A stretch of 39,303 nucleotides of DNA from a virus, in IMG/VR virus record IMGVR_UViG_3300020047_004329, positions 1-39,303 of that record. The stretch is one strand, 5' to 3'. The position numbers and the translations under genes were made by a program. Positions 2,671 through 39,303 of the stretch are shown here, piece by piece. Within the stretch, counting starts at the first letter, position 1. Each line of letters begins with the position of its first letter. The notes below the pieces were generated by a model. The model searched no databases and was not told the origin of the DNA. It saw only the letters and a list, made by a program, of their open reading frames with translations.

Positions 2671-4293
2671 ATGGCAACCATCACCACAACTACTAGCCTG
2701 TCGTTCGACGCAGCGGCAAGCCTGACCGTGGGCGTTGACAAGAACTTTGAAGGCTCTATCGCGTTCACAAGTGCCAACGATGATGTGTGGCCGTCGTTCA
2801 CGGTGACGAAGCCGCAGAGCAAGGTGTACGGGCCGTTCGGCATTGCGATGACGGCGGTTATCACTGTTGGCAATGGATCGCTTGACTACACGATCAACGG
2901 GGGTATGGGCGGGTTTGGCTACGACACTGATGGCAATCCGACATCCCTGGTGTCAGCGGATGGGATTCCAAATACTCTGAGCGTGGGCGCAATCCAGGGC
3001 TTCAGCGCAGCGACCACGATCCCCGAGATTGTGTTTGACCAGTCCAAAGGCGGGCAGTACCTGTTTACGGCCTACGATGCTGGCAACAATTACACATCGT
3101 CGCTATCGGTTGCCACGGGCACGTTGGCAAGCATGACAAAGACGGCCATTTCCGCCACAAACGTCAGCAACTTGAAGGACACGGCTGGCGCGGCAATCAC
3201 GGCTGGCGCAGTTGTTTGCGCGTGGTGGATCAACGAAACCCGATTCATGTTCGTCGGCAAAAAGAACAGCGGCAACACGAATTACGTTTGGATTTGCGAC
3301 TACAACGGTGGCGCGTGGAAGGTCGGCAGCAACTCGACTACCTTTGACAACGGCAACGCCGTTCTCGCACTTGGCCTTTACTCTGGCGGGCAGGCTGGAC
3401 TTTCTGGGGTGCTGCACTCCCGTTCGGTTGCCATGAATTTGGACGCTTCCAAGATTCTGATTGCCGAGTACAACGTGGCAACCGGGCGCGTAACGGGTGG
3501 AACAAATGACGCAATCCGCGTCTACCAATCAGCCGATCAGGGCGCAACGTGGTCAGCATTGCTGACGCACAACACCAGCGGCAACCAGATGCGCCACTGG
3601 CATTTTGTGAAATTTGATCCATACAACAGCGCCCGACCATGGATCATTGGTGGTGGCGATGATCCGCTGAGTGCGTTGATCCGGTGGGATGGAACATCCA
3701 GCGCGCCCGCTGCAAATACGCCGCTGACACAGGCGGGTTTTGCTGGCTATCCGGGGTGGGAGGTCATGCACGACACGGCGGGGATTGAGTGCCGAAGTGG
3801 GGACATTGCGATCCATCCGCAGACGCTGCACTATATGTCGGACAACTCGGAAGTCAACACTGCAGAAAAGTACAACTTTCAAGTTTCCAAACATCGTCCA
3901 CTTGCCCGCGTGCGGGCGAATCAGCATGATCGCTCTATTGGGCGTTCCCCGTTGATTTGCTGCGAATTGCCAAACGGAGCGACGGTATGGGGCACGATCC
4001 GCGAGGCGCAGGACTTGGGGGCAGCGCCTGAATCGTGGCAGGGGTACGATTTCCTGTACACCCCGGACGGCGTCACCTTCCACAAGATCGCAAAGACGCG
4101 CGATGTCTCTGCCAGCGGCACCGGAACGCTGAGCAACATTTTCATGAGCAACGAGGGAATACTTGTAATTTCCGGGCTCAATGCGCGTGGCTGCAAGTTG
4201 CGGCCATCTGCATCCACGAATGGCGAGGGATCGCTGCTGGTGACGCTGCAGGCGTGGGACGGCGCGGTACGGACATTGCAAGGCACCGCCTGA
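2671..4293 (+). CDS. Asp-box (BNR) repeat protein, sialidase-like beta-propeller candidate
   Basis: 540-aa ORF with one canonical Asp-box (SADQGATW) and weaker copies (YTPDGVTF, YNGGAW). It sits unusually between portal and scaffold. Confidence 0.55.
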   Translation: MATITTTTSLSFDAAASLTVGVDKNFEGSIAFTSANDDVWPSFTVTKPQSKVYGPFGIAMTAVITVGNGSLDYTINGGMGGFGYDTDGNPTSLVSADGIPNTLSVGAIQGFSAATTIPEIVFDQSKGGQYLFTAYDAGNNYTSSLSVATGTLASMTKTAISATNVSNLKDTAGAAITAGAVVCAWWINETRFMFVGKKNSGNTNYVWICDYNGGAWKVGSNSTTFDNGNAVLALGLYSGGQAGLSGVLHSRSVAMNLDASKILIAEYNVATGRVTGGTNDAIRVYQSADQGATWSALLTHNTSGNQMRHWHFVKFDPYNSARPWIIGGGDDPLSALIRWDGTSSAPAANTPLTQAGFAGYPGWEVMHDTAGIECRSGDIAIHPQTLHYMSDNSEVNTAEKYNFQVSKHRPLARVRANQHDRSIGRSPLICCELPNGATVWGTIREAQDLGAAPESWQGYDFLYTPDGVTFHKIAKTRDVSASGTGTLSNIFMSNEGILVISGLNARGCKLRPSASTNGEGSLLVTLQAWDGAVRTLQGTA

Positions 4294-5651: not shown

Positions 5652-7172
5652 ATGCCCAATTCTTTGGTCACTATCGACATGGTGACGCGCGAAGCGTTGC
5701 GTGTCGCCCATGAGTCGTGCCAGTTCATTTCCACCACGGATCGCCAATACGATAGCTCGTATGCGAAGACCGGTGCAAAGATCGGCGCATCCCTTCGTGT
5801 TCGCAAGCCGAACCAGTACACCCGCACCCAAGGCTCCCGAGTCATGGATGTGCAGGACCAGGACGAGCAGACCGGCACGATCACTGTGGCAACGCAGGAT
5901 CACGTCGACATGCGTTTCAATTCTGCTGAACTCTCTTTGTCTATCGACGAACTGAGCAAGCGGTACATCGAGCCCGCCGTTAAGGTGCTGATTTCCAGCA
6001 TCGAAGCGGACTATCTGGCCTATGCCACGAAGAAGGTCTACAACGTCGTCGGCTCCGCTGGCACTGCCATCACAACCCTGTCCACTCCTGGCCTGGCGCG
6101 TGCGCGGCTGAACCAGATGCTTGCACCGAAAGACAACAATCGCGCCATCCAGATGGACAGCGTGACGATGGCTGGTCTTGTCAACGGTATGGCTGCGTAC
6201 TTCAACCCGAGTAACGCTATCGCTTCGCAGTACAAAGAAGGCTTGGTGGCTCGCACCTCCATGGCCGACTACTACGAAAACGAGCGTGTCTGGTCGTTGT
6301 CGAATAGCGCAGACGTTACCGTTACGACCGCTGGCGCTGCTGCCGTCACCGATGGCGGAACGAACATCACGCTTGCATCCGTGGCTAATGCTACGACCGC
6401 TGGCATGGTGTTCACTGTCGCTGGTGTCTACGCTTGCCATCCGGAGACGAAGCAGTCTCTTGGTTACCTGCAGCCGTATGTCGTCGTCACTGGCGGCACC
6501 ACGACGCAAGAGGTTAGCCCCGCAACGATTCTGACCGGCCCGCGCCAAAACGTGTGCTCGTCTGCATCGGCGCAACTGGCGACAACTGCGTACAACGGCA
6601 CGGCTGTTGCGGTCACGTTCTTCGGCGCAGCCAGCACGACCTACGCGCAGCCGCTGATGTACCACAAGGAAGCGTTCCAGTTCGTCACGGCAGATTTGCC
6701 ATTGATGGACGACGCTCACAAGTGCGTGCGCCGGACGCAAGACGGGCTGTCGCTTCGCGTGTGGCAGGCATCGGACATCAGGAATGACGAGTTAACAAAT
6801 TCCTTTGCATCTGCGAACGACTTTTCGTTTGCAGTAGCTGCATAAAGACGGCTCCTTTTCGCGGGAACGCGGATCGAACATTTCTCTAATTCGGTGAACA
6901 ACTCTGCGGAGTCAATACCGAGCCAAGCCGCGATAAGCGGAAGGTGTAACGACTAGTCGAAAGACGTAGGGCCAAGCGGTCCGAAATGGGAAACAGCCAG
7001 AACGGCTGAAGAGATAGTCTGCTCTGCATGGTGACATGCAGCGGGTCGAACGACCGGGCGTGAAATAGCGAATCACGTTGAACATTTGGTGCTTATGCGT
7101 ATCGACATCCTGTACGGCATGGCCGCACTTCGCCCCGAGTGGGCTTGCCGAATGATCGGCGCGGCCAGCTAA
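5652..7172 (+). CDS. major capsid (coat) protein, P22 gp5-like, intron-split: join(5652..6792,7090..7172), 407 aa
   Basis: The exon 1 ORF runs on into a non-protein-like tail (stop 6843-6845). In the same frame, 7090-7172 encodes LLMRIDILYGMAALRPEWACRMIGAAS*. This matches the P22 coat C-terminus ([28 protein letters not shown]) with identical DI-to-RI spacing. A terminator follows. Confidence 0.8.
6793..7089 (+). ncRNA. group I self-splicing intron (IA2, T4 td-like), no internal ORF
   Basis: 7014-7042 (atagtctgctctgcatggtgacatgcagc) and 6947-6955 (taacgacta) match the T4 td intron as I remember it. Foldable elements: P2 6858-6873 (GGAA loop), P3 6881-6886/6988-6993, P4 6891-6895/6917-6921, P5 6901-6912, P6 6927-6940, P7 6951-6955/7015-7019, P7.1 6956-6965 (GAAA), P8 6994-7008, P9 7024-7041 (GUGA). 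The IGS ggctc (6850-6854) pairs with exon GAGU, with a U6792-G6851 wobble. The terminal G is 7089. Confidence 0.8.
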
Positions 7173-8261: not shown

Positions 8262-8896
8262 GCATCACCACATATGCCGAACTGGTCACCGCGCTAGATG
8301 GCTTCGACGGCTATCTGCACCGCACCGACCTGACGGCGAAGATTCCCGACTTCATTGCACTCGCTGAATCGAAGATCAATCGCAAGCTGCGCGTTCTGCT
8401 GCAAGAAACGGAAAGCACGCTGACGGCTACGATTAGTAGTCGACTGATGGCAGCGCCCACAAGATTCGGCACGCCTATCGCGCTGTGGCTGACGACAGAC
8501 GAACCACGCGACGAACTGATCTATCGCACGCCGGAAGACTTGCCGGTAACGACGACTAACGGCGGCTCGGATTACTACACGGTCGACGGCTCCAACATCG
8601 CCACCGAGAATCCAGCCGACCAAGCCTACAGCTACACGCTGCGCTACTGGACACGTTTCGCGCTGGCAACGACTTCCACAAACACGGTGCTGACGAACTA
8701 TCCCGACGCCTATGTCTACGGGGCGCTGTGCGAGTCTGTGGGCACTACCCGCGACGACTCGCAACTGCAACTGTGGGAGGCGCGGTTTAACGCTGCGATC
8801 AAAGAAGCAATGACCGACACCACGAAAACCAAGGGCACTGCCACGCTACGAACTGAGTTCGGCGGGGATCGGCCCTCAATCCTGCGAGGTTACTAG
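8258..8896 (+). CDS. putative head-tail adaptor / head completion protein
   Basis: 212 aa placed between the head genes and the tail fiber. The N-terminal TYAELV...IPDFIALAESKINRKL pattern resembles connector/adaptor proteins. Confidence 0.4.
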   Translation: MSITTYAELVTALDGFDGYLHRTDLTAKIPDFIALAESKINRKLRVLLQETESTLTATISSRLMAAPTRFGTPIALWLTTDEPRDELIYRTPEDLPVTTTNGGSDYYTVDGSNIATENPADQAYSYTLRYWTRFALATTSTNTVLTNYPDAYVYGALCESVGTTRDDSQLQLWEARFNAAIKEAMTDTTKTKGTATLRTEFGGDRPSILRGY

Positions 8897-9414
8897 GCAA
8901 TGTGCGTCCACACCTTACGCGCGAGGATTCTTGAAATTACGTCTTGGCCAACTCCTAATTCGCGCGCAATAACGCCTTGTTTTCTTGTGTCTGCGCGTAT
9001 TCTCAAAACATCATCGCTAGTCAATTTGGCACAAGGGTTTTTTTCTCCTCGATTGGTTCTGCCTAGTTTTTTGGCATCTGCCATGTTCCCCTTCCTCGTG
9101 TCCCATCGCAGATTTTCCAGTGTGTTGTTTGTCCGGTTGCTGTCTTTGTGGCAGGCATCAAATGACTTCGGCATTTCTCCAACAAAAGCCATAAGGACAA
9201 GTCTGTGAACACGATGTTTTGTCCTGATGTTTTCTTTGCACAACGTGAGTGCGAGATAGCCCCATGTCCCAGTGTGCGGAGCAAGGATCGCGCCCTTAAG
9301 TTTTTTTGGTCCGCCGCTGTAATGCTTAACGATCCTATCTTCGCTACGTATCGCGCCAAGATTGGACGCGCTGTAAAGGCCTTCGTACCCTGGTATCGGC
9401 TTCCATATTTCCAT
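8893..9414 (-). CDS. HNH homing endonuclease (NUMOD4 + HNH)
   Basis: 173 aa with EIWKPIPGYEGLYSASNLG (NUMOD4) and HRLVLMAF...CHKDSNRTNNTLENLRW (HNH). It is one of only two candidate minus-strand genes in the virion operon (the other is the low-confidence 18102-18227 ORF). It is visibly AT-richer than its flanks. Confidence 0.85.
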   Translation of the reverse strand: MEIWKPIPGYEGLYSASNLGAIRSEDRIVKHYSGGPKKLKGAILAPHTGTWGYLALTLCKENIRTKHRVHRLVLMAFVGEMPKSFDACHKDSNRTNNTLENLRWDTRKGNMADAKKLGRTNRGEKNPCAKLTSDDVLRIRADTRKQGVIARELGVGQDVISRILARKVWTHIA

Positions 9415-10748: not shown

Positions 10749-12274
10749 CCATTGCGACCGTCAGCAACTGCGGGCAAGGCCTTAACGCCGACCTGACGCC
10801 AGAGGAGCTAGGCGTCGGCGTGTGGAGCGACGTATCGAACGTGCGTTTCTCCAATGGCTACGCGGAGAGATTCAGGGGTATGATGCAGGTGTTCGCCACT
10901 CCCGCAGTTACGCCTTACTGGTGTGCGCCTTATGTCTACGTGACCACGAAATTCATCGTGCATGCGGGCCTAGCGGCTGTGTACGTTGACGACGGAACGA
11001 CTAGGACGGACATAACAGGCACTGCGCCTACGGGGGCTATCGACGACCGGTGGAGCGGTGGAACCTTGAACGGCATCTTCGTATGTAACAACGGTGTTGA
11101 CCTTCCAAAATACTGGGTCGGCACCATTGCTACCAACTTAGTCGAAATGTCGGGTGTTGGCTGGGATTCTGGGTGGCGTGCCGAAGCGTTGCGGCCATTC
11201 AAAAACTTCCTTGTCGCGCTCAACATCACCAAGAGCGGCACGAAATATCCGCACATGGTGAAGTGGTCGGCGGCGGCAAATCCCGGCGCGGTGCCTTCCG
11301 ATTGGGACGAGACAGACCCCACGATTGATGCTGGCGAGCAGGATTTGGCCGGGGCTGATCCTTTGGTAGACGCGCTGCAATTGGGCGATGCGCTGATTCT
11401 GTATAAGCAGCGCAGTTCGTGGGCCATGACCTTTATTGGTGCCCCGTATATCTTTCGCTTTCAACGCCTTCCCGGCGAGTTTGGAATGTTAGCCCGTGGG
11501 TGCGCGGTAGATACGCCTTTGGGACACGTTGTCCTGAGTGCTGGCGATGTCGTTCTGAACAACGGAAGCGGCCCGGTGTCTATCTGCAATGGCGCTGTGC
11601 GTAAGTACATCTTCAACAACATCAATAGCACGCACTACAAGCGCGCATTCGTCACCAGCAATCCAAGCCGCGACGAAGTGTGGGTGTGTTTCCCCTTCGG
11701 CAGTGCCGAAGCATGCGACCGTGCTGCCGTGTGGAACTGGACGGATAAAACGTGGTCGATTCGGACGCTGGTAAACGCTACCTTTGGGTGTGTTGGTCAG
11801 ACTACGATAACCGACTCATGGGACGCTGATACCGAGACATGGGACCAAGACACCACAAGCTGGAACGAGAACGAATATTCCCCGGCTGAGAGTCGCCTAT
11901 TCATGACTCATTCCACGCCATTGATAAGCATCGTGGATAGCGGCTCTACAGACTTCGGGACCGTGATCAGCGGCTATCTAGAACGCACAGGAATGCACCT
12001 GGGCGACCCGAACGCAGTGAAGACCATCACAGGTATCCGCCCGCGCATTGACGGCGCTACAGGGGCCACAGTGACGGTGGAGATAGGCGGCGCTATGTCT
12101 CCAGATGCAACGCCTACTTGGTCGACAGCGCAGACGTTCGCGATTGGTAGCAGCATCAAGATTGACAGCTTTGCAACAGGCCGATTCTTGTCGGTGCGGT
12201 TCACGAATGTGGACTACGCGCAGTGGCGCATGCGCAGCTTCGATATCGACTACGTTAACGCGGGACGGTACTAA
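10745..12274 (+). CDS. virion structural protein (tail/nozzle candidate)
   Basis: The start was moved to the ATG at 10745, which overlaps the upstream stop (ATGA). 509 aa with the N-terminal GLNADLTPEEL...W..VSNVRF motif seen in podovirus tail genes. Confidence 0.6.
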   Translation: MTIATVSNCGQGLNADLTPEELGVGVWSDVSNVRFSNGYAERFRGMMQVFATPAVTPYWCAPYVYVTTKFIVHAGLAAVYVDDGTTRTDITGTAPTGAIDDRWSGGTLNGIFVCNNGVDLPKYWVGTIATNLVEMSGVGWDSGWRAEALRPFKNFLVALNITKSGTKYPHMVKWSAAANPGAVPSDWDETDPTIDAGEQDLAGADPLVDALQLGDALILYKQRSSWAMTFIGAPYIFRFQRLPGEFGMLARGCAVDTPLGHVVLSAGDVVLNNGSGPVSICNGAVRKYIFNNINSTHYKRAFVTSNPSRDEVWVCFPFGSAEACDRAAVWNWTDKTWSIRTLVNATFGCVGQTTITDSWDADTETWDQDTTSWNENEYSPAESRLFMTHSTPLISIVDSGSTDFGTVISGYLERTGMHLGDPNAVKTITGIRPRIDGATGATVTVEIGGAMSPDATPTWSTAQTFAIGSSIKIDSFATGRFLSVRFTNVDYAQWRMRSFDIDYVNAGRY

Positions 12275-12507
12275 TGGCACGCTACACACCCGGCCCCGTA
12301 GACGACCAGATCGTCGGCCAAGAACTGCAAAAGATAGCGCAGGCAATCGACACGCCGGACCAGTTTTTGACGCTCGAAAAGCTGTATGCCCTGCCGAACA
12401 AATACAGGGATGGAACGATCATTTACGCAGACGGAACCACGCTCGACCCTGGCAGCGGCGAGGGCGCATATATCTATTACGCATTGGCCTGGCATCACTT
12501 GGGATAA
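12274..12507 (+). CDS. hypothetical virion-module protein
   Basis: 77-aa ORF tightly packed in the tail gene block. Confidence 0.5.
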   Translation: MARYTPGPVDDQIVGQELQKIAQAIDTPDQFLTLEKLYALPNKYRDGTIIYADGTTLDPGSGEGAYIYYALAWHHLG

Positions 12508-12510
12508 ATC

Positions 12511-13482
12511 ATGGCAATCACACCTTTGAATGAACAAGATCGCGCCTGGGTTGTCGAAGAGGCAAAGCGCAGGGCTGGGCCTAACGCCACCGATGCGCAA
12601 CAAAAGCGCGAGCTTTACAACTACGCGCAATGGCAGGGCAAGACGCCGGAAGAGTTGGACCAATGGATGGGCTACACCACCGGCACTAGTGCGGCGTGGA
12701 ACGCGGCTAACCCGCTAGGCGGGACGCCTGCGCAGAACAGTCCTGCGACCATTGGCGCAAACATGGTGGTTAGCGGACCCGGCAATCAGGCGGCATACAG
12801 CACGCCTATGCCACCGGCTGCGAACCTCGGCATTGGCGGCGATGTAATGCCTAGCCGCAGCGGCGACAACCGATGGAGTGGCGACCCGACGCGGCAACCT
12901 AACGGCAGCTTCAATCCGCAACCATCGGGCAACCTCGGTATGGGAGATATGGGCTATCAGCGCAATCCCTACCTTGATGCGACATCACGCGATATTGGCG
13001 CGCAGATGTTCGACCAGTGGAATCGCAACGTAGCCCCCGGCCTGCGCTCTGGTGCTATGGCTACGGGCGGATATGGCGGGTCTCGGCAGGGTGTTGTTGA
13101 AGCAAATGCTTTGAACGACCTGGGGCGGAACTACTCGCAGGCATTGACCGGCATGTACGGCACCGATTACACCAATTACCAAAACAGAGGCATCCAGCGG
13201 CAAGGGCAGGCGCAATCGTACGACCTAGGTCTCAGGAATTCGGACCTTGGCTTCGCCTCCCTAGACGCCAATATTGCGCAGAATAATTTCGGGAACCAGA
13301 TGACGGCTGCGAACTTCGGCCTTGGCGTGCAGGACTATCTCAACCGCAACAACCAGACCGGCATTGCAGCGGGAACGAACCTGCAAAACACGCAGCTTGA
13401 ATATCAGAAGTACCTGAACCAGGCGGGCAATCAAGCGGGCAGCGGCTGGAACACAAGCACCACAACCAAGACTGGAGGCTGA
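12511..13482 (+). CDS. internal virion / ejection protein candidate
   Basis: 323 aa, G/N/Q-rich low-complexity protein in the tail-distal block. Confidence 0.5.
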   Translation: MAITPLNEQDRAWVVEEAKRRAGPNATDAQQKRELYNYAQWQGKTPEELDQWMGYTTGTSAAWNAANPLGGTPAQNSPATIGANMVVSGPGNQAAYSTPMPPAANLGIGGDVMPSRSGDNRWSGDPTRQPNGSFNPQPSGNLGMGDMGYQRNPYLDATSRDIGAQMFDQWNRNVAPGLRSGAMATGGYGGSRQGVVEANALNDLGRNYSQALTGMYGTDYTNYQNRGIQRQGQAQSYDLGLRNSDLGFASLDANIAQNNFGNQMTAANFGLGVQDYLNRNNQTGIAAGTNLQNTQLEYQKYLNQAGNQAGSGWNTSTTTKTGG

Positions 13483-20966: not shown

Positions 20967-21182
20967 TTACAGCAGGTCACGCGGCGCAGGCTCAAACCAG
21001 TCGGCGTCATACAGCGATTCCGAGGTGCCATTTTTCAGTGTCGGCGTAACCCGGAAACAGATGCGGCTTTGGCTGGCCGTATTTTCTAGCCTGTCCACAA
21101 TACGAACCAGCGTCATGCCCTTGCCGTTGTAGTCGGTAACAGCATCGTCACCGGGTTTGAGCATTCGTCCTGCTTTGCTCAT
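20967..21182 (-). CDS. hypothetical protein
   Basis: Start trimmed to the ATG at 21182. 71 aa. First gene after attP-like element 1. Confidence 0.45.
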   Translation of the reverse strand: MSKAGRMLKPGDDAVTDYNGKGMTLVRIVDRLENTASQSRICFRVTPTLKNGTSESLYDADWFEPAPRDLL

Positions 21183-21432
21183 GCGGCCACCCCGCAAAAA
21201 ATCCGTGAAAACTTTGTGAATTTGTAGGCTATTCCGCGTCCCGCCGTAGGCTTGTCGCTCCGGCTCTCACTGGGGAAAACCGTGATTTGACGCGGGGTTG
21301 CATGGAGCGGGTGAAGGGAATCGAACCCTCGGACACTTTGCGCTAACGTGTTGATTTTGTTCATATTTTTTGCTGCCGCAAAATTAATTCGTGAGAATTC
21401 CGTGAATTTCAGGGGGTTGCGGTGGCTGGTAA
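21183..21432 (-). other. attP-like non-coding element 1 with tRNA-Gly 3'-end core
   Basis: The reverse complement of core 21303-21328 is GGGTTCGATTCCCTTCACCCGCTCCA (T-loop, acceptor 3' strand, discriminator U, CCA). TTCACGGA-type octamers flank it on both arms (plus-strand tccgtgaa at 21202 and 21399; variants at 21214 and 21388). Confidence 0.6.
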
Positions 21433-21603
21433 TGCCGTGCAAAGTCCGAACCACGGTTCACCGTCGCGCCAAGCTGACTTGATTTCAGCCACCTTTTCAA
21501 TCGTGCGAACCATGTGCCAAGCGGTTGCCATGTCGCCAACATCGTGTTGCATGACGCTGCCGTCCGCGTACTCAAACTCTATTTTGATGAATGCTGGCGT
21601 CAT
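21409..21603 (-). CDS. hypothetical protein
   Basis: 64-aa ORF coupled by ATGA to the upstream gene. Its last codons lie inside element 1. Confidence 0.5.
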   Translation of the reverse strand: MTPAFIKIEFEYADGSVMQHDVGDMATAWHMVRTIEKVAEIKSAWRDGEPWFGLCTALPATATP

Positions 21604-21755
21604 GCCGTCGTCACCGCTGGCTCAGTTGGGCCTGTCTGTGCGTTGATAAACCCGCGCAGTCTGATGGTTGGACCATTCGCGCCGCCCTGCATATGTTCAA
21701 CACAATCAATGTCCAGTAGTGCCAGTGATTTAGCCTGCGATGGGTCCATGCTCAT
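21600..21755 (-). CDS. hypothetical protein (51 aa)
   Basis: Below the ORF-track cutoff. ATGA overlaps at both ends link it to its neighbours. Confidence 0.35.
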   Translation of the reverse strand: MSMDPSQAKSLALLDIDCVEHMQGGANGPTIRLRGFINAQTGPTEPAVTTA

Positions 21756-21792
21756 TCTCCTTTGGGTTTGGTCGGGGCTGTAGGTGTGGCTG
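21752..21792 (-). repeat. 41-bp gene-junction cassette, copy 1 (identical to 22073-22113)
   Basis: tcattctcctttgggtttggtcggggctgtaggtgtggctg. On the minus strand it encodes ...ATPTAPTKPKGE*, the SD and the ATGA start of the next gene. Confidence 0.85.
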
Positions 21793-22003
21793 GTGGTGTG
21801 GGTTCTGGGTCTGTCTGATGCGTCTTTTGCACAAACATGTGGAACCCGCAGTCACCGCAGTTAATTGACGGTGCCACTTGCTGCCCGTCAAAATGCCACG
21901 GGCCTTCAGGGATCATCATCAGGTCGTATCCATTCCGGCACTTGTGCCGCAGCCAAGCATGTTTGCCATCGGCATCCGGCCAGCATTGATAGTCCCTTAC
22001 CAT
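21752..22003 (-). CDS. hypothetical Cys-rich protein
   Basis: 83 aa with SD aggagg upstream. The C-terminal tail PTAPTKPKGE is encoded by the 41-bp junction repeat. Confidence 0.5.
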   Translation of the reverse strand: MVRDYQCWPDADGKHAWLRHKCRNGYDLMMIPEGPWHFDGQQVAPSINCGDCGFHMFVQKTHQTDPEPTPPATPTAPTKPKGE

Positions 22004-22072
22004 TTCACCTGCCTCCTGTTTCCTTGGTTGACGGTCGTCTGCACCGGGTGGGTTTTGATCTCTTCGTCCATA

Positions 22073-22113
22073 TCATTCTCCTTTGGGTTTGGTCGGGGCT
22101 GTAGGTGTGGCTG
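22073..22113 (-). repeat. 41-bp gene-junction cassette, copy 2
   Basis: Identical 41-mer at the 3' end of an unrelated gene. Confidence 0.85.
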
Positions 22114-22303
22114 TCCGCTTGTCGTGTTCGGCCTTGATAGCGACATACACGCCATTGAGCGGCAATTTGTCGGTTACCTCGCCGGCCTGCGCTTCGATTG
22201 GGGCTGTTGACCATTCCTGCAGGTCTTTCACCCGCAGCGTGCGGTTGTTGAAGTGCCGTCGCGCTTCGGATGCGATGGCGCTCTCCAGGGATCGCATGCT
22301 CAT
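22073..22303 (-). CDS. hypothetical protein
   Basis: 76 aa. First gene after attP-like element 2. Starts ATGAGC like 20967-21182. Confidence 0.5.
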   Translation of the reverse strand: MSMRSLESAIASEARRHFNNRTLRVKDLQEWSTAPIEAQAGEVTDKLPLNGVYVAIKAEHDKRTATPTAPTKPKGE

Positions 22304-22548
22304 GGCTGTGCCTCCGAATAAATCCGTGAATATTCCGTGAATCTGTAGCCCCGATCCCGTCCTGCCGTGGACGGGTTGCGCTGGCTCTCACAGGGGAAAA
22401 CGCTGATTTGGCGCGGGCTTAGATGGAGCGGGTGAAGGGAATCGAACCCTTGTACGGTTGGCGCTAACGTGTTGATTTGCATGGTGTTTTTGGAATCGCT
22501 ATATTTTCTGTGCAGCGAACGTGTGAATTTCAGGTGGTGGCGGTGGCA
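22304..22548 (-). other. attP-like non-coding element 2 with tRNA-Gly 3'-end core
   Basis: Core 22424-22449 is identical to 21303-21328. Shared flanking blocks: AAATCAACACGTTAGCGC and CCCGCG.CAAATCA.CG.TTTTCCCC.GTGAGAGCC. tccgtgaa octamers at 22323 and 22334, with a variant at 22521. Confidence 0.6.
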
Positions 22549-22549
22549 G

Positions 22550-22744
22550 TTATTGCGGGTTGTTGTGAACGTACACAGACGCGCCAGTTTCCGGATCAAC
22601 GTAATCCAGCACAGGGGCGCACCAGCAATCGGCGTTTGTCTCATGCCTTCGTTTGGTGCAATCTGCGTCACCGCATACGGGCCTATCGCAAGCGCAATCC
22701 GGCCATCTGCAAACGTGCGCTTCTGGTGTGGTTGGGGCGGTCAT
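22550..22744 (-). CDS. hypothetical Cys-rich protein
   Basis: Start trimmed to the ATG at 22744 (SD ggaggagga, ATGA overlap). 64 aa. Confidence 0.5.
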   Translation of the reverse strand: MTAPTTPEAHVCRWPDCACDRPVCGDADCTKRRHETNADCWCAPVLDYVDPETGASVYVHNNPQ

Positions 22745-22872
22745 TCCTCCTCCAGTGGCACATCGCGCCATTCGCCTTGGCCTGTCTGCACATCACGCCA
22801 CCATTGCTGTAGGACGCGCTGGCCAACTTCGCTTTCAATCCAGCGCAGTTGCGTGGTTGCTTCCAGTGTCAT
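22741..22872 (-). CDS. hypothetical protein (43 aa)
   Basis: Below the track cutoff. ATGA overlaps at both ends. Product MTLEATTQLRWIESEVGQRVLQQWWRDVQTGQGEWRDVPLEEE. Confidence 0.4.
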   Translation of the reverse strand: MTLEATTQLRWIESEVGQRVLQQWWRDVQTGQGEWRDVPLEEE

Positions 22873-27664: not shown

Positions 27665-28354
27665 TTAGTCTTTGCGGGCGTGAGTAATCCGTGAAACGGC
27701 GACCTCGATAAGCAGCCGGTATTCAAGGTGCGTTCTGTCGTCGTGTTCTTTTTCGGACTTGGACAGAAACTCATCAATAGAACCTGCGAAGCAACCGCGA
27801 GCCAGTTCAATGCTGTTGTCTTTGGTGTTGTAGGCGGTAAGCGTTCCGTTTTCAGTGCCTACTTTGCTTGCCCAAAAAATCAAGCCATCGCCGTACACCC
27901 CCGCATCGCCGGACACCCACGCATCGCCGTACACCCGCGCATTGCCGAACACCCGCGCATTGCCGTACACCTACGCATCGCCGGACACCCACGCATCGCC
28001 GGACACCCACGCATTGCCGTACACCCGCGCATTGCCGGACACCCGCGCATTGCCGTACACCCGCGCATTGCCGGACACCCGCGCATTGCCGGACACCCGC
28101 GCATCGCCGTACACCCGCGCATCGCCGTACACCTGCGCATCGCCGGACACCCGCGCATTGCCGTACACCCGCGCATCGCCGGACACCCACGCATTGCCAT
28201 CTTGGCTAAGTGATTTTTCGCTCTCGATATACCCGCCCAGCGAACCGGCAGATGCAAAGTAGGAGATTGCAACGAGCGCCCGAATGCGCTTCACGGTGCG
28301 GCCCGGTGCGATGGTGATTTCATCGCCTGGGACGAATTCGTATTTTTTGCTCAT
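27665..28354 (-). pseudogene. hexapeptide-repeat (left-handed beta-helix) protein interrupted by an in-frame TAG at 27971-27973
   Basis: ATG at 28354 (SD aagga). About 17 units of G-[DN]-A-x-V-[SY]. The TAG sits where other units have TGG, CGG or CAG. The frame continues into a well-formed C-terminal domain ending at 27665. Confidence 0.6.
27884..28198 (-). repeat. 18-bp tandem repeat array (about 17.5 units), coding
   Basis: ggacacccgcgcattgcc / gtacacccgcgcatcgcc variants reiterated head to tail. This generates long spurious ORFs in several frames. Confidence 0.9.
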
Positions 28355-34874: not shown

Positions 34875-35239
34875 AACAAACCTACATCCTTGCACACCCA
34901 ATCGCACGCCAAAGGGCCATAGATGCCGTTAAACAAGCTCCAGACGGGTTTGTGATTACTGTGGCTGAGGCTACAAGGAATTTGGAGCAAAACGCAGCCC
35001 TATGGGCAATCCTGCACGAAATCAGCGAAGGCGTCGATTGGCATGGCCGCAAGCTGTCGCCTACCGATTGGAAAAACGTGTTTACAGCGTCACTGCGCCG
35101 GATGGATGTCGTGCCGAATCTGGAGGGCACCGGGTTTGTGGCGCTGGGGCAATCTACCAGCAGCATGGGCAAGCGCGAGTTTTCGGATTTGCTGGAGCTG
35201 GCGAATGCCTTCGCGGCGGAGCGCCTAGTAACGAGTTAG
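34871..35239 (+). CDS. ninB: NinB/Orf recombination mediator
   Basis: 122 aa and collinear with lambda NinB as remembered (RNLEQNAALWAILHEIS..VDWHGRKLS..DWKNVFTA.L....VVPNLEGTGFVALGQSTS.M...EF..LLEL). Confidence 0.8.
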   Translation: MKQTYILAHPIARQRAIDAVKQAPDGFVITVAEATRNLEQNAALWAILHEISEGVDWHGRKLSPTDWKNVFTASLRRMDVVPNLEGTGFVALGQSTSSMGKREFSDLLELANAFAAERLVTS

Positions 35240-35280
35240 GGCTAATCCGTGCGGCCATTTGCGCGGAAACAGGAGAAAAC

Positions 35281-35553
35281 ATGGAAACATTTACACAGCC
35301 AAAAATCACGGGCTATCGGCAACTGAGCGAGGCCGAAGTGGCGCTGATGAACGAGGGTAAGGCACTGGCCGAGGCATGCGGCGCTTACGTCGCCAAACTG
35401 CGCACGCATCCAGCCGCAAAGCCGGACCAAGCGCCTACTGAGGGTTACGCGCTGCCACCGCTTGACCAGCGATGGATCAGCATCGGCGCGACCGACCTGC
35501 AGCGCGGGTTTATGTGCGTCATTCGTGGCATTGCGCGGCCAACGACGTTCTAA
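35281..35553 (+). CDS. conserved phage hypothetical protein
   Basis: Start trimmed to the ATG at 35281 (SD aggaga). 90 aa with a PKITGYRQLSEAEVALMNE...DQRW.SIG.T.LQ.GFM motif. Confidence 0.5.
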   Translation: METFTQPKITGYRQLSEAEVALMNEGKALAEACGAYVAKLRTHPAAKPDQAPTEGYALPPLDQRWISIGATDLQRGFMCVIRGIARPTTF

Positions 35554-35755: not shown

Positions 35756-36045
35756 GCAAGATCACGGCAAGCGCAAACGGCGAAGACTGCCAGGTGCGGA
35801 TTGTTGGCGTGTGCACATTCGACCCTGCCAAAACCATATGGAGCCATGCGCGGCACGGTTCGGCAGGTAAGGGCAAGAGCATCAAGGCGCTAGACATTGC
35901 TGGCGCGTATGCCTGCACGGCATGCGATGCCGCCTATGACCAACTACAGGGGGTCGGGCATATGACGCGGCAGGAAGTCGATTTAGATTGGTTCCACGGC
36001 CATCTAAGGTCGCTGGTGATATTGGCTAACAAGGGGTTGATATGA
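35752..36045 (+). CDS. YbcO/DUF1364-like protein
   Basis: 97 aa with a GTG start (GTGA overlap). The GEDCQVRI.GVC..DP..T.W.H...G.GK..K..D......C..C pattern resembles lambdoid YbcO-family proteins. Confidence 0.55.
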   Translation: MSKITASANGEDCQVRIVGVCTFDPAKTIWSHARHGSAGKGKSIKALDIAGAYACTACDAAYDQLQGVGHMTRQEVDLDWFHGHLRSLVILANKGLI

Positions 36046-36587
36046 GCGATGAGACTTGGAAGCAGCTTCCGGGGTATGGCGGGCACTACGACGTTTCCGA
36101 CATGGGGCGCGTAAGGGTAAGGGACCGGCATGTAGAAAGAAAGCACCCAACCGGCATGATTGTTAAGTTCTTTTACCCTGGCCGACTTTTGCAGCCATGC
36201 GCATCAGGCAGGTACGGGCACCAATCCGTTCACGTTGGGGTCGGTGGAAAGCGGTACAGCTTGGCTGTGCATTGGATGGTACTGGTTACGTTTGTAGGGC
36301 CGCGCCCGGAAGGCATGGAGGCATGTCACGGGAACGGCAATGCGTCGGACAACAGGCTTCAAAACTTGCGATGGGATACGCATTTCGAGAACAACCAAGA
36401 CAGAAAGCGTCACGGACGTTATGCAACTGGCGCAAAGCATGTCATGGCAAAACTGACCGACGAAACCGTGCGGGAGATCAAGCAATCTAGCATGAATGGA
36501 CTGCAAGTGGCGCAGCGTTACGGCATCGGAACCAGCACGGCTCACAGGATATTGACTGGCAAGTCTTGGGCGCATGTCTCCGCTTAA
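36042..36587 (+). CDS. HNH homing endonuclease (NUMOD4 + HNH), second copy
   Basis: 181 aa with WKQLPGYGGHYDVSDMG (NUMOD4) and HWMVLVTF...CHGNGNASDNRLQNLRW (HNH). Same architecture as 8893-9414. Confidence 0.85.
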   Translation: MSDETWKQLPGYGGHYDVSDMGRVRVRDRHVERKHPTGMIVKFFYPGRLLQPCASGRYGHQSVHVGVGGKRYSLAVHWMVLVTFVGPRPEGMEACHGNGNASDNRLQNLRWDTHFENNQDRKRHGRYATGAKHVMAKLTDETVREIKQSSMNGLQVAQRYGIGTSTAHRILTGKSWAHVSA

Positions 36588-37394: not shown

Positions 37395-37500
37395 GCATCA
37401 GTAGCTCAGTGGCAGAGCAGTCCCCGCCCCGAGTAGCTGGTTTCCAGCGCGGCCAGCGATGCGGTATTGGCCGCTGGTTCGAGTCCAGCCTGATGCACCA
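37395..37500 (+). tRNA. tRNA-shaped gene without a canonical anticodon arm (106 nt, encoded CCA)
   Basis: Perfect 7-bp acceptor stem (GCATCAG/CTGATGC). D arm GCTC-AGTGGCA-GAGC. T arm GCTGG-TTCGAGT-CCAGC. Discriminator A plus CCA. The 53 nt between the D and T arms contain no 5-bp/7-nt anticodon hairpin in any register I tried. Confidence 0.55.
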
Positions 37501-37914: not shown

Positions 37915-39196
37915 GACTCCGCGCATATTCGTACCGCTGCTAAAGCCATCAAGATACAAAGGCGTTGACGGCGGGCGCGGTTCCGGCAAGTCTCATTTCT
38001 TTGCGGAGAAGTTGATAGAGGACTGCATGGCAGAGCCGGGAGACTTTGGCGAGGGAATGCGCGCAGTCTGTATCCGCGAAGTACAAAAGGACTTGGCGCA
38101 GTCTTCCAAGGCGTTGATTGAGTCGAAGCTGAGTAAGTACGGGCTTGGCGAGGCTGACGGGTTCAAGGTGTTCAAGACTGAGATTGAAACGCCTGGCGAC
38201 GGCCTGATGATCTTCAAGGGCATGCAGGACTACACAGCAGACTCAATCAAGTCACTGGAAGGGTTCAAACGTGCTTGGTGGGAAGAGGCGCAAACGGCCA
38301 CGGCAATATCACTGAACATGCTACGCCCGACACTGCGGGCCGATGCTTCGGAGTTGTGGTTTAGCTGGAATCCCCGGCGCAAGACTGACGCGGTAGACGA
38401 AATGCTTCGCGGCGAGTCGCTGCCAACAGACGCAACAGTCATCCGGGCCAATTGGCGTGATAACCCGTGGTTTCCGTCAACCCTGGAGCAAGAGCGTTTA
38501 GATTGCCTGCGCATGCAGCCAGAGCAGTACGACCACATATGGGAGGGCGGTTATGCAACCGTTCTGTCTGGCGCTTACTATGCAAGGTCGATAGCTGACG
38601 CAACAACGCAAGGCCGAATAGGTCGCGTGTCTGCTGACCCGCTGATGACGCGGCAAGCGTTCTTTGACATCGGCGGGACTGGTGCAAAGGCTGACGCTGT
38701 AGCGATATGGGTCGCGCAGTTCATCGGCAAAGAGATACGCATTCTGGACTACTACGAAGCAGTCGGGCAACCGCTGGCGGTTCATCTGGAATGGCTTCGC
38801 TCACGCGGCCATGGATCGGCAAAGATCGTGCTACCGCACGACGGTGACACCAACGATAAGGTGTACGACGTAAGTTATGCGTCTGCATGCCGTGCTGCGC
38901 AGTTCAAGGTAGAAGTGATCCCGAACCAGGGCAAAGGCGCAGCAAAGGCGCGCATCGAAGCCGGGAGGCGTCTATTCCCCGCGTGCTGGTTTAACCAGGC
39001 CACAACGCAAGCGGGACTTGATGCGCTGGGCTGGTATCACGAAAAGAAGGACGACAAGCGAAACATTGGGCTTGGTCCTGAACACGATTGGGCAAGCCAC
39101 GGAAGTGATGCATTCGGCCTGATGTGTGTCGCATACGAAGAGCCTAAGGTAAAGAAACCACCGGCAGCACAAAGATCAACCTCTTGGATGGCCTGA
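37892..39196 (+). CDS. terL: terminase large subunit
   Basis: 434 aa with Walker A GGRGSGKS after RYKGVDGG, a downstream Walker B/nuclease region, and PBSX/P22-type layout. The start is TTG at 37892 or GTG at 37901. Confidence 0.9.
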   Translation: MTPVLNLETPRIFVPLLKPSRYKGVDGGRGSGKSHFFAEKLIEDCMAEPGDFGEGMRAVCIREVQKDLAQSSKALIESKLSKYGLGEADGFKVFKTEIETPGDGLMIFKGMQDYTADSIKSLEGFKRAWWEEAQTATAISLNMLRPTLRADASELWFSWNPRRKTDAVDEMLRGESLPTDATVIRANWRDNPWFPSTLEQERLDCLRMQPEQYDHIWEGGYATVLSGAYYARSIADATTQGRIGRVSADPLMTRQAFFDIGGTGAKADAVAIWVAQFIGKEIRILDYYEAVGQPLAVHLEWLRSRGHGSAKIVLPHDGDTNDKVYDVSYASACRAAQFKVEVIPNQGKGAAKARIEAGRRLFPACWFNQATTQAGLDALGWYHEKKDDKRNIGLGPEHDWASHGSDAFGLMCVAYEEPKVKKPPAAQRSTSWMA

Positions 39197-39303
39197 TGAA
39201 CAACATAAACGCTGTGAAGCGCCGCACAAATGGACGACACACTTAAGGAAGATTTGGAGGCGTTCAAGCTGGCGTCGGAGCATGAGTCAGACCAGCGCGC
39301 CAC
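39183..39303. repeat. terminal overlap copy (equals 1-121), includes duplicated portal start at 39230
   Basis: Verbatim repeat of the window start. Confidence 0.9.

Follow-up and report, generated by a model that had tools for sequence, protein, structure and literature searches.

The Locus and Its Genes

The stretch of DNA analyzed here (the window, 39,303 nt) carries an exact 121-nt terminal overlap and therefore represents a closed and complete circular phage genome. Its leftward operon, encoded on the minus strand, has just two non-coding gaps of more than 100 nt (226 and 246 nt), in agreement with the first-pass annotation, which had singled them out as the only sizeable ones. Each gap is occupied by one of two related elements, copy 1 and copy 2, which bracket a cassette of four small open reading frames (ORFs; Table 1). 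The left block of copy 1 overlaps the final codons and the stop of the 64-aa ORF. None of the cassette ORFs matches a known family, and a PHROGs search with ten flanking small ORFs, those of the cassette included, returned two weak matches of unknown function, neither of them in the cassette. An exact-protein look-up of the 76-aa, 83-aa, and portal proteins found none on record, and megablast and blastn searches of 50,697 phage records with the region gave no match.

No integrase domain was detected by a domain search among window ORFs of at least 150 aa, and tblastn with the integrase of related phages revealed no remnant (best E value of 0.79). The absence of an int gene, noted at first reading, thus holds for a genome that is circular and complete, and both elements, read as attachment sites, are orphans. 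No excisionase candidate or recognizable repressor was found in the window genome; for the repressor, Pfam, PHROGs, and tblastn with the CI-like protein of L137 were all negative. A small ribbon-helix-helix (RHH)-like gene, the candidate excisionase, precedes the site in relatives and has no homolog in the window; the candidate itself has no Pfam match. The phage may be a virulent derivative.

Table 1. Features of the two elements and neighboring genes (window coordinates)
Feature	Position	Strand	Description
71-aa ORF	20967..21182	-	directly downstream of copy 1
Probable attP copy 1, whole	21183..21426	-	left block GCCACCGCAACCCCCTGA to base before the 71-aa ORF ATG
Copy 1 P'-arm direct repeats	21202..21220	-	TTCACAAAGTTTTCACGGA, 11-bp spacing
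Copy 1 P'-arm conserved blocks	21237..21280	-	GTTTTCCCCAGTGAGAGCC (21262-21280), ACGGCGGGACG (21237-21247)
Copy 1 core	21303..21328	-	tRNA-Gly T-stem/T-loop, 3' acceptor strand, discriminator, CCA
Copy 1 T-loop	21319-21325	-	TTCGATT, within core
Copy 1 IHF consensus match	21344..21356	-	AATCAACACGTTA (consensus WATCAANNNNTTR), 15 nt 5' of T-stem GGG
Copy 1 P-arm	21391..21406	-	two direct repeats, 11-bp spacing, TTCACGGAATTCTCAC; candidate arm-type integrase sites
Cassette between sites	21427..22303	-	ORFs of 76, 83, 51, 64 aa
64-aa ORF	21409-21603	-	cassette
51-aa ORF	21600-21755	-	cassette
83-aa ORF	21752-22003	-	cassette
76-aa ORF	22073-22303	-	cassette
Probable attP copy 2, whole	22304..22547	-	left block GCCACCGCCACCACCTGA to base before the 76-aa ORF ATG
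Copy 2 P'-arm	22323..22341	-	two perfect TTCACGGA units, 11 bp apart
Copy 2 P'-arm conserved blocks	22358..22401	-	GTTTTCCCCTGTGAGAGCC (22383-22401), ACGGCAGGACG (22358-22368)
Copy 2 core	22424..22449	-	tRNA-Gly 3' end, same sequence as copy 1 core
Copy 2 IHF consensus match	22465..22477	-	AATCAACACGTTA
Copy 2 P-arm	22510..22527	-	TTCAC unit (22523-22527), degenerate CTGCAC unit (22510-22515)
73-aa ORF	22550..22771	-	directly upstream of copy 2

Anatomy of the Two Elements

The elements are repeats of about 245 bp, each built around the same 26-mer and set 1,121 bp apart. They align directly over 195 nt (21176-21370 and 22297-22491) at 75% identity and over a second block of 34 nt (21402-21435 and 22523-22556) at 85% identity, which bears out the two diverged direct repeats described earlier. 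The copies differ at approximately 25% of the arm positions, while the core, the IHF site, and the internal blocks are unchanged.

Read on the minus strand, each element opens with a left block, followed by P-arm TTCAC direct repeats with 11-bp spacing and the predicted IHF site. A variable spacer of 11-15 nt leads to the core, which comprises the two T-stem halves around the 7-nt T-loop, the 3' acceptor strand, and CCA; two conserved blocks, the P'-arm TTCAC repeats, and a ribosome-binding site with the next gene start complete the unit. The conserved block on the 5' side of the core, previously recognized as such, turns out to be a perfect IHF consensus, which in each copy lies on the 5' side of the core at a distance of 15 nt; six such matches occur in the window, where 0.4 would be expected. 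Among 18 homologous elements, namely the window pair and 16 further ones in metagenome contigs, this predicted accessory site is unchanged in 15. The conserved blocks of the P' arm are candidate protein-binding sites.

The octamer TTCACGGA lies at 21202, 21399, 22323, and 22334 on the minus strand, exactly where it had been reported. It is not enriched genome-wide (35 occurrences with one mismatch, 30 expected). The paired form, TTCAC-N8-CAC, occurs five times against 1.4 expected, and three of the five are inside the elements. TTCAC repeats spaced by 11 bp are present on both arms of both copies and may be bound by the Arm-DNA-bind_2 domain of the integrase found in relatives. The assignment is tentative, since int-carrying relatives such as L136 have fewer clean TTCAC units; the P-arm layout of copy 2 is also seen in the left arm of L136. 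A separate occurrence of TTCACGGATTACTCAC at 27680-27695 is within coding sequence and was taken as chance.

The tRNA-Gly Core

The 26-mer GGGTTCGATTCCCTTCACCCGCTCCA was found in exactly two identical copies in the window, at the positions first reported, with no further match even when three mismatches are allowed (0.00 expected from shuffled sequences). It equals the 3' end of genes called as tRNA-Gly(CCC), tRNA-Gly(UCC), and tRNA-Gly(GCC) by ARAGORN in many fetched loci, which substantiates its original identification, and the similarity begins at the T-stem. ARAGORN calls no tRNA in the window and Rfam finds nothing significant over 21100-22650, consistent with the proposal that the elements hold tRNA gene fragments. 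The single core variant among the elements, A to G, corresponds to the 3' terminus of a different natural tRNA-Gly, of the E. coli glyU type. Across 119 IMG/VR loci with the 26-mer, none has TTCAC repeats or window-like flanks. An 11-mer acceptor-strand match in L153, L156, L157, and L158 was dismissed, as it falls within a coding gene on the other strand and lacks a T-loop.

The resemblance to a tRNA raises the question of whether the element acts as RNA, with a T-arm/acceptor mimic serving as a processing or stability signal for RNase P/Z or the CCA-adding enzyme. The elements are within a co-directional operon and would be transcribed, and the T-arm hairpin is preserved, a change from A-U to G-U being the difference between the two copies. 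However, the 5' acceptor strand, the D arm, and the anticodon arm are all missing, neither a cloverleaf nor a covarying structure was found, and the covariation term obtained by RNAalifold with seven elements is just -1.0 kcal/mol. Double changes occur in two of 30 pairs, both in a weak outer helix, and the copy 1 pairing CCGCGTC/GACGCGG is lost in L120 and L132. The compensating pairings and the tRNA-like punctuation put forward in the first-pass annotation are thus left without comparative support. In addition, the tRNA segment of L151, a site of the related integrase clade, is inverted relative to the operon, which fits a DNA site and not an RNA signal. An RNA function is extremely unlikely.

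Integrase Linkage and Integrated Forms in Relatives

Relatives connect the element to an integrase. In L125 and L136, it is located 0.7-0.9 kb downstream of a tyrosine integrase of approximately 400 aa with an arm-binding domain. The L125 enzyme (422 aa) matches Phage_integrase (4.5e-22) and Arm-DNA-bind_2 (1.2e-14), with the element 0.9 kb downstream, while in L136, whose integrase is 90% identical, three small genes separate int from the element. A C-terminal stump of the integrase survives in L131 (68 aa) and L132 (35 aa), in each case approximately 1 kb upstream of the element. The orphan state of the window sites is due to loss of int in this lineage, relatives carrying either the full gene or stumps. 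The right arm of copy 1, from core to ATG, is identical to that of int-carrying L125, and the 71-aa ORF together with an R1-type right arm makes up the side of the site that does not vary among relatives.

Apparent integrated forms are also found. The end of a 72% identical integrase from a Comamonadaceae genome reads AAATTCACACACAATTCACACAC, and an identical 26-mer is located 50 nt past the integrase stop, followed by a degenerate second island; this integrase/TTCAC/tRNA-fragment junction resembles a prophage attR. In prophage L135, AATTCAC repeats like those of copy 1 lie inside the 3' end of int at the putative attR. L152, a clade member with 62% identity, shows an int-proximal junction in which int, GTGAA repeats, and an IHF site border on a complete tRNA-Arg and on genes of the host. 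Among the sequences scanned, neither an attL or attR of the window lineage itself nor an int-less lysogen was found. IMG/VR scans for the right-arm block (CAAATCANNGTTTTCCCC... and GTTTTCCCCNGTGAGAGC) gave no match, and a scan for the IHF block gave one, in the unrelated phage L124.

Each element is therefore very probably (roughly 80%) a complete attP of a tyrosine-integrase family that integrates at the T-loop/3' end of tRNA-Gly, the int gene having been lost here. The attP-like reading of a tRNA-Gly 3' end in an integrase-less phage, proposed from the window, is supported by the int-adjacent elements and the attR-like junction. The site type is a known one, but its doubled and enzyme-less arrangement is unusual.

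The same features had suggested duplicated promoter/operator modules, in which a phage regulator of the downstream genes would use the TTCAC repeats as its operators. The repeats do occur just upstream of ribosome-binding sites, and IHF sites are found in promoters too. Yet no sigma-70-like promoter was found on the minus strand within either element, and the repeats recur inside the int 3' end at the putative prophage attR. More distant homologs of the 71-aa gene, with 61% identity, lack the element altogether and show translational coupling to the gene upstream. The regulatory proposal is accordingly unsupported and very unlikely.

Apparent Recombination at the Core

The metagenome contig L145 represents the same lineage minus exactly the 1,121-bp core-to-core repeat unit. 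It carries the same 73-aa gene followed by one hybrid site. Its identity to the window is 100% for 620 nt, ending where the copy 2 core ends; past the core, it continues with the right arm of copy 1 and the genes downstream, now with 99.3% identity. The crossover thus maps within 27 bp (GGGTTCG...CTCCAT). Of the two recombination products that the first-pass annotation proposed to look for, the deletion is thus present in a public contig with its junction in the core, whereas the circle junction (copy 1 left arm-core-copy 2 right arm) was not found.

Among the 18 elements, left-arm types are joined to right-arm types in many-to-many combinations at the core, and one left arm type is paired with four right arm types. 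The left arm of copy 2, from the first TTCAC repeat to the core, is identical in L120, L141, and L145, and the identity with L145 extends through the left block. Junctions are likewise seen outside the core, at the conserved IHF and left blocks.

Misassembly of two strains through their shared core could in principle mimic such an arrangement. Several short contigs end exactly at the core, as in L139 and L140, or, as in L121, at the element's left edge, which reveals assembly difficulty at this position. However, the identical stretch is approximately 27 bp and the longest shared block approximately 60 bp, and the 121-nt overlap points to assembly with a far longer k-mer. The join between the 64-aa gene and the left arm and core of copy 1 also recurs, independently, in two other samples at 99-100% identity, and a chimera is exceedingly improbable.

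With the elements read as attP sites, their present status can be viewed in two ways. The sites may be relics, held by descent and now unused, that persist since the loss of int is recent, with the duplication and L145 produced by ERF/Sak or RecA recombination; the odds of this are slightly below even. The absence of int from the window and its truncation in L131 and L132 point to ongoing decay of the integration module, and the lack of an RHH homolog is in line with this. The phages encode ERF or Sak single-strand annealing proteins, and in conjunction with the junctions at the IHF and left blocks, homologous recombination could explain the mosaicism without an integrase. A few substitutions within conserved blocks are already seen in int-less lineages (for example, GGCTTTCCCC in L145 and L148; CCTCAGTGAAGG in L141). 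In contrast, neither window copy is less intact than its counterparts in int-carrying relatives, the copy 1 right arm being identical to that of L125, and the preservation of core, IHF site, and internal blocks amid diverged arms points to constraint, even if the copies may have diverged before int was lost.

Alternatively, the sites may function with a prophage integrase supplied in trans, the 1.1-kb cassette moving by integrase-mediated attP x attP recombination. Both roles raised at the outset, sites for an integrase in trans and an excisable or insertable cassette, are plausible, and their combination as a present activity is possible but unlikely. Phages that carry int with the same core and arms occur in similar metagenomes. 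The presence/absence polymorphism is exact, with its junction within the 27-bp core, and one left arm type is combined with several right arms. Integrase-less cis-mobilizable elements provide a precedent for att sites used in trans (PMC5704250). On the other hand, neither a circle junction nor an int-less lysogen was found, and homologous recombination fits the same data. In lambda, moreover, attP x attP recombination is inefficient. A more elaborate version holds that int-less lineages keep attP to borrow the integrase of a prophage and that attP-bounded groups of early genes are swapped by attP x attP recombination in an integron-like manner; this is quite improbable.

Proposed Mechanism

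By analogy with lambda-type sites, the catalytic domains of the integrase would bind the inverted T-stem halves, with strand exchange in or near the T-loop, while the N-terminal arm-binding domain would contact the TTCAC repeats and IHF would bend the P arm. What has been observed is the homology, the linkage to int in relatives, an attR-like junction, and a junction in the core, whereas the protein contacts, the precise site of strand exchange, and any current activity are inferred. Because the core is identical to the tRNA from T-stem to CCA, integration would rebuild the gene: the phage-borne 3' end would restore the host tRNA-Gly (attL), and the displaced host fragment would be placed beside the P arm (attR). 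Recombination between related genomes at the core they share probably accounts for the second copy and for the 1.1-kb segment. With int and the RHH-like gene lost, the window phage alone would be unable to use either site, and the sites would be workable only with an integrase from a related prophage or a co-infecting phage.

Comparison with Known Systems

The elements resemble tRNA attP sites of the T-stem region, in which the core is identical to the tRNA from T-stem to CCA; this class accounts for 1,836 of 3,919 islands in Islander (PMC4383910). They share with lambda-type attP the IHF consensus beside the core and the direct repeats spaced by approximately 11 bp on both arms, and, as for tRNA-targeting sites, the element in relatives adjoins an integrase with an arm-binding domain. 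In contrast to such sites, the window genome has no integrase, and two probable sites occur in tandem, 1.1 kb apart, in an early-left operon.

Cis-mobilizable elements (CIMEs) are att-bounded, lack int, and are mobile only with a related integrase in trans (Pavlovic 2004, Bellanger 2011, reviewed in PMC5704250); insertion at an att site that is already present gives rise to tandem sites (PMC5704250). The cassette is likewise bounded by att sites in direct orientation, and the genome has lost its own integrase. However, CIMEs are chromosomal islands flanked by attL and attR that derive from ICEs, while the window has full attP sites on a phage genome, and its mobility is hypothetical.

Lambda att2 phages, studied by Shulman and Gottesman in the early 1970s, reportedly segregate single-site phage via Int-promoted intramolecular recombination. 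They too have two directly repeated att sites per phage and give a derivative that lacks exactly the intervening DNA. Unlike the window, att2 phages are laboratory constructs with attL, attR, and int, whereas the window has two diverged natural attP and no int.

Integron cassettes are also short promoterless gene units bounded by recombination sites. Their insertion into and removal from an operon are carried out by an integrase that they do not encode, and the window cassette might, by analogy, be handled similarly. Integron attC sites are folded single-strand substrates of IntI. The window sites are unrelated to attC in sequence and structure, and there is no sign in the window of a dedicated platform or repeated cassette arrays.

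Biological Implications

tRNA fragments in phage genomes are a frequent annotation puzzle, which is here resolved into probable attachment sites by way of an int-carrying relative. The integration module is found at several stages of decay in one phage group (full int, stumps, and none), such that the DNA site outlasts its enzyme and doubles as a junction for the gain and loss of small early-gene blocks. If a borrowed integrase were used, seemingly virulent phages could lysogenize solely those cells that carry a related prophage, which would bear on the prediction of host range and lifestyle from genomes. If the sites are relics, they would be useful as a marker of a recently temperate phage.

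Architecture of the elements

The 26-mer GGGTTCGATTCCCTTCACCCGCTCCA, which the first-pass annotation had read as a tRNA-Gly 3′ end, occurs in two copies on the minus strand of the window. Both positions and the count are reproduced against an expectation of 0 from shuffles, and no third site is found in the window when up to three mismatches are allowed. A repeat finder places the two cores in a direct repeat of 195 nt (75% identity, spacing 1,121) and detects a second block of 34 nt (85% identity). In pairwise alignment, the copies are similar from the GCCACCGC block as far as the start codon of the next gene. The elements are the only non-coding gaps of more than 100 nt in the minus-strand operon. 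ARAGORN predicts no tRNA in the window, and Rfam yields no significant match over the element region.

The conserved 5′ block AAATCAACACGTTAGCGC includes AATCAACACGTTA, which in both copies matches perfectly the IHF consensus, WATCAANNNNTTR. In each copy, the predicted IHF site is 5′ of the T-stem at a distance of 15 nt. The window holds six consensus matches, all on the minus strand, compared with 0.4 expected for both strands together. The TTCACGGA octamers recur where they had first been annotated; the octamer by itself shows no genome-wide enrichment. Its paired form, TTCAC-N8-CAC, occurs five times in the window (1.4 expected), with three of the five inside the elements. The elements share the standard layout of tyrosine-integrase attP sites.

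Unrelated upstream ORFs run in frame into the left block GCCACCGCnACCnCCTGA, also present in the related contigs L125, L142, L143, and L144, and for this reason all end in ..ATATP* or similar. In L120, another relative, a left-block copy and one TTCAC unit, without a core, precede a different four-gene cassette. Within the cassette of the window, the 83-aa and 76-aa ORFs owe their common C-terminus (..TPTAPTKPKGE*), ribosome-binding site, and overlapping next-gene start to a perfect 41-nt direct repeat, which looks like gene-boundary linker sequence.

Coordinates of the elements and of other features in the window
Feature	Position	Strand	Remark
26-mer core, copy 1	21303-21328	minus	GGGTTCGATTCCCTTCACCCGCTCCA
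26-mer core, copy 2	22424-22449	minus	GGGTTCGATTCCCTTCACCCGCTCCA
195-nt direct repeat	21176-21370; 22297-22491		
Left block	21409-21426; 22530-22547		GCCACCGCnACCnCCTGA
IHF consensus matches outside the elements	19377; 25632; 36030; 38107	minus	consensus match
41-nt direct repeat	21752-21792; 22073-22113		perfect
Terminal overlap	1-121; 39183-39303		exact
397-aa ORF	5652-6845		no Pfam match, structural region
Group I intron match	6834-7041	plus	Rfam, 66.4 bits, E 7.6e-15
tRNA match	37395-37497	plus	Rfam, 48.1 bits, 103 nt
Acb2/Tad1 hairpin-domain protein	35002-35553	plus	Pfam, 5.3e-13
HNH_3 + NUMOD4 protein	8893-9414	minus	homing-endonuclease-like
HNH_3 + NUMOD4 protein	36042-36587	plus	homing-endonuclease-like

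Relatives and the linked integrase

An exact scan finds the 26-mer in at least 119 IMG/VR contigs. Many of these contigs have a full tRNA that ends in the 26-mer; ARAGORN identifies such tRNAs as tRNA-Gly with anticodon CCC, UCC, or GCC. Many other matches are phage or island att sites, in which a partial tRNA is followed by tandem direct repeats with 11-bp spacing; none of these att sites has flanks resembling the window elements. In an unrelated IMG/VR phage (L124), a non-coding stretch at 2620-2830 has three spaced AATCAAC-NN-GTTA(C/G)GC copies, which resemble the IHF consensus.

Scanning metagenome and genome contigs for a core preceded at 13-17 nt by an IHF consensus retrieves four homologous elements (L125, L128, L131, and L132) as well as unrelated sites of equal layout, one of them in a Burkholderiaceae MAG. 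Exact-protein look-ups add L120, L139, L140, and the nine contigs L141-L149, for a comparison set of 18 elements, including the two window copies.

The single element of L125 lies, following the operon direction, 0.9 kb downstream of a protein of 422 aa with Phage_integrase (4.5e-22), Arm-DNA-bind_2 (1.2e-14), and SAM-like domains. The two are separated by small ORFs, the last encoding an RHH-like protein (MGRPSKPPEDK..VRL..) whose stop falls in the left block of the element. Homologs of this protein occur in L120, L128, L131, and L132; the window has none. The L136 integrase shares 90% identity with its L125 counterpart; after it come three small genes, then the element, a single gene, and the lysis genes. 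Searches by tblastn with the L125 integrase recover C-terminal stumps of 68 aa in L131 and 35 aa in L132; the window gives no match (best E 0.79). No window ORF of at least 150 aa contains an integrase or recombinase domain, so the initial claim that this phage lacks int holds. Across the relatives, the module is therefore complete, decaying, or present as the DNA site alone.

At E ≤1e-20, the integrase has 189 homologs, including some from Comamonadaceae and Rhodoferax genomes. One homolog, 72% identical, is carried by Comamonadaceae bacterium G21597-S1 (L135). It ends in AAATTCACACACAATTCACACAC, and the same 26-mer lies 50 nt past its stop, followed by a truncated N-terminal fragment of a P4-type integrase and then a transposase-like stretch. 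Judged by its sequence, this junction looks like an attR at a tRNA-Gly hotspot, and the region 11280-12528 resembles decayed islands arrayed in tandem at this tRNA. Two loci of the same integrase clade, L151 and L152, combine int, repeats, an IHF site, and a tRNA-derived core in the same way; the core is inverted at the same distance from the AATCAACAACTTAG IHF site, and the arm repeats differ (GTGCTTATT in L151, GTGAA in L152). The inverted segment of L151 (~4000-4240) derives from tRNA-Gly, and L152 (5549-5720) adjoins a full tRNA-Arg and host genes, its target being tRNA-Arg(TCT).

The IHF site, the arm repeats, the int-linked homologs, and the attR-like junction support the attP-like reading first proposed from the window, with the elements as orphan tandem attP sites. 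That they are a pure relic is somewhat short of an even chance; continued use with an integrase borrowed in trans is less likely than that.

Two other roles had been suggested, and neither is supported. For an RNA element, RNAalifold on seven elements returns nothing beyond the T-arm hairpin and some invariant pairs, with a covariation term of -1.0 kcal/mol and double changes in 2 of 30 pairs; the pairing proposed for copy 1 is lost in L120 and L132. For a promoter/operator module, the minus strand of both elements lacks a sigma-70-like promoter or terminator-like site, and the 71-aa gene downstream of copy 1 has more distant homologs that are translationally coupled to their upstream gene with the element absent.

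Cassette presence or absence and arm reassortment

L145, a contig from a different metagenome, matches the window at 100% identity for 620 nt, through the left arm and core of copy 2, and past the core continues into the right arm of copy 1 and the downstream genes (99.3% over 572 nt). It is therefore the window lineage minus exactly the 1,121-bp unit. The deletion junction that the first-pass annotation proposed to look for is present, with its crossover in the core, within the 27 bp GGGTTCG...CTCCAT. That the duplication is an assembly chimera is unlikely: the shared stretch is much shorter than the k-mer implied by the 121-nt terminal overlap, and two other samples again show the 64-aa gene joined to the left arm and core of copy 1.

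Left and right arm types reassort among the 18 elements: four right arm types are found with the copy 2-type left arm, and at least five left-proximal types accompany the copy 1-type right arm. Five elements (L131, L143, L144, L146, and L148) carry the sole core variant, A to G. L149 has the A core, yet shares its left-proximal sequence with these five, so a crossover lies between that sequence and the variant position. Further junctions fall at two other conserved blocks, the IHF block and the left block, the latter being where unrelated upstream ORFs all end in ..ATATP*. With the ERF or Sak annealing proteins that these phages carry, the same pattern can arise by homologous recombination at conserved blocks; integrase-mediated exchange would fit the sequence data equally well, and the data do not separate the two.

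Genome of the phage

The identical termini indicate a closed circular assembly of ~39.2 kb. It encodes a P22-type portal, large terminase, SNF2 helicase-methylase fusion, ERF, exonuclease, lysozyme, Acb2/Tad1-like protein, SU10-type adaptor, and HNH endonucleases. The Acb2/Tad1-like protein is a candidate anti-CBASS/anti-Thoeris sponge. The HNH_3 + NUMOD4 gene at 8893-9414 lies within the structural gene block on the opposite strand. The group I intron match starts at the end of the 397-aa ORF and may split a structural gene. The Rfam tRNA match, missed by ARAGORN, precedes the large terminase gene by ~400 nt; its acceptor stem, D arm, and T arm are normal, with ~31 extra nt between the last two.

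Comparison with known systems

Sites in the T-stem region form the largest class in Islander, with 1,836 of 3,919 islands (PMC4383910). Among ICE-derived islands, att-bearing elements without their own integrase have been described, as have tandem att sites arising by accretion (PMC5704250). What is less usual about this case is that a complete phage genome holds two diverged full attP copies, that it has no integrase, and that a natural single-site sibling, L145, exists.
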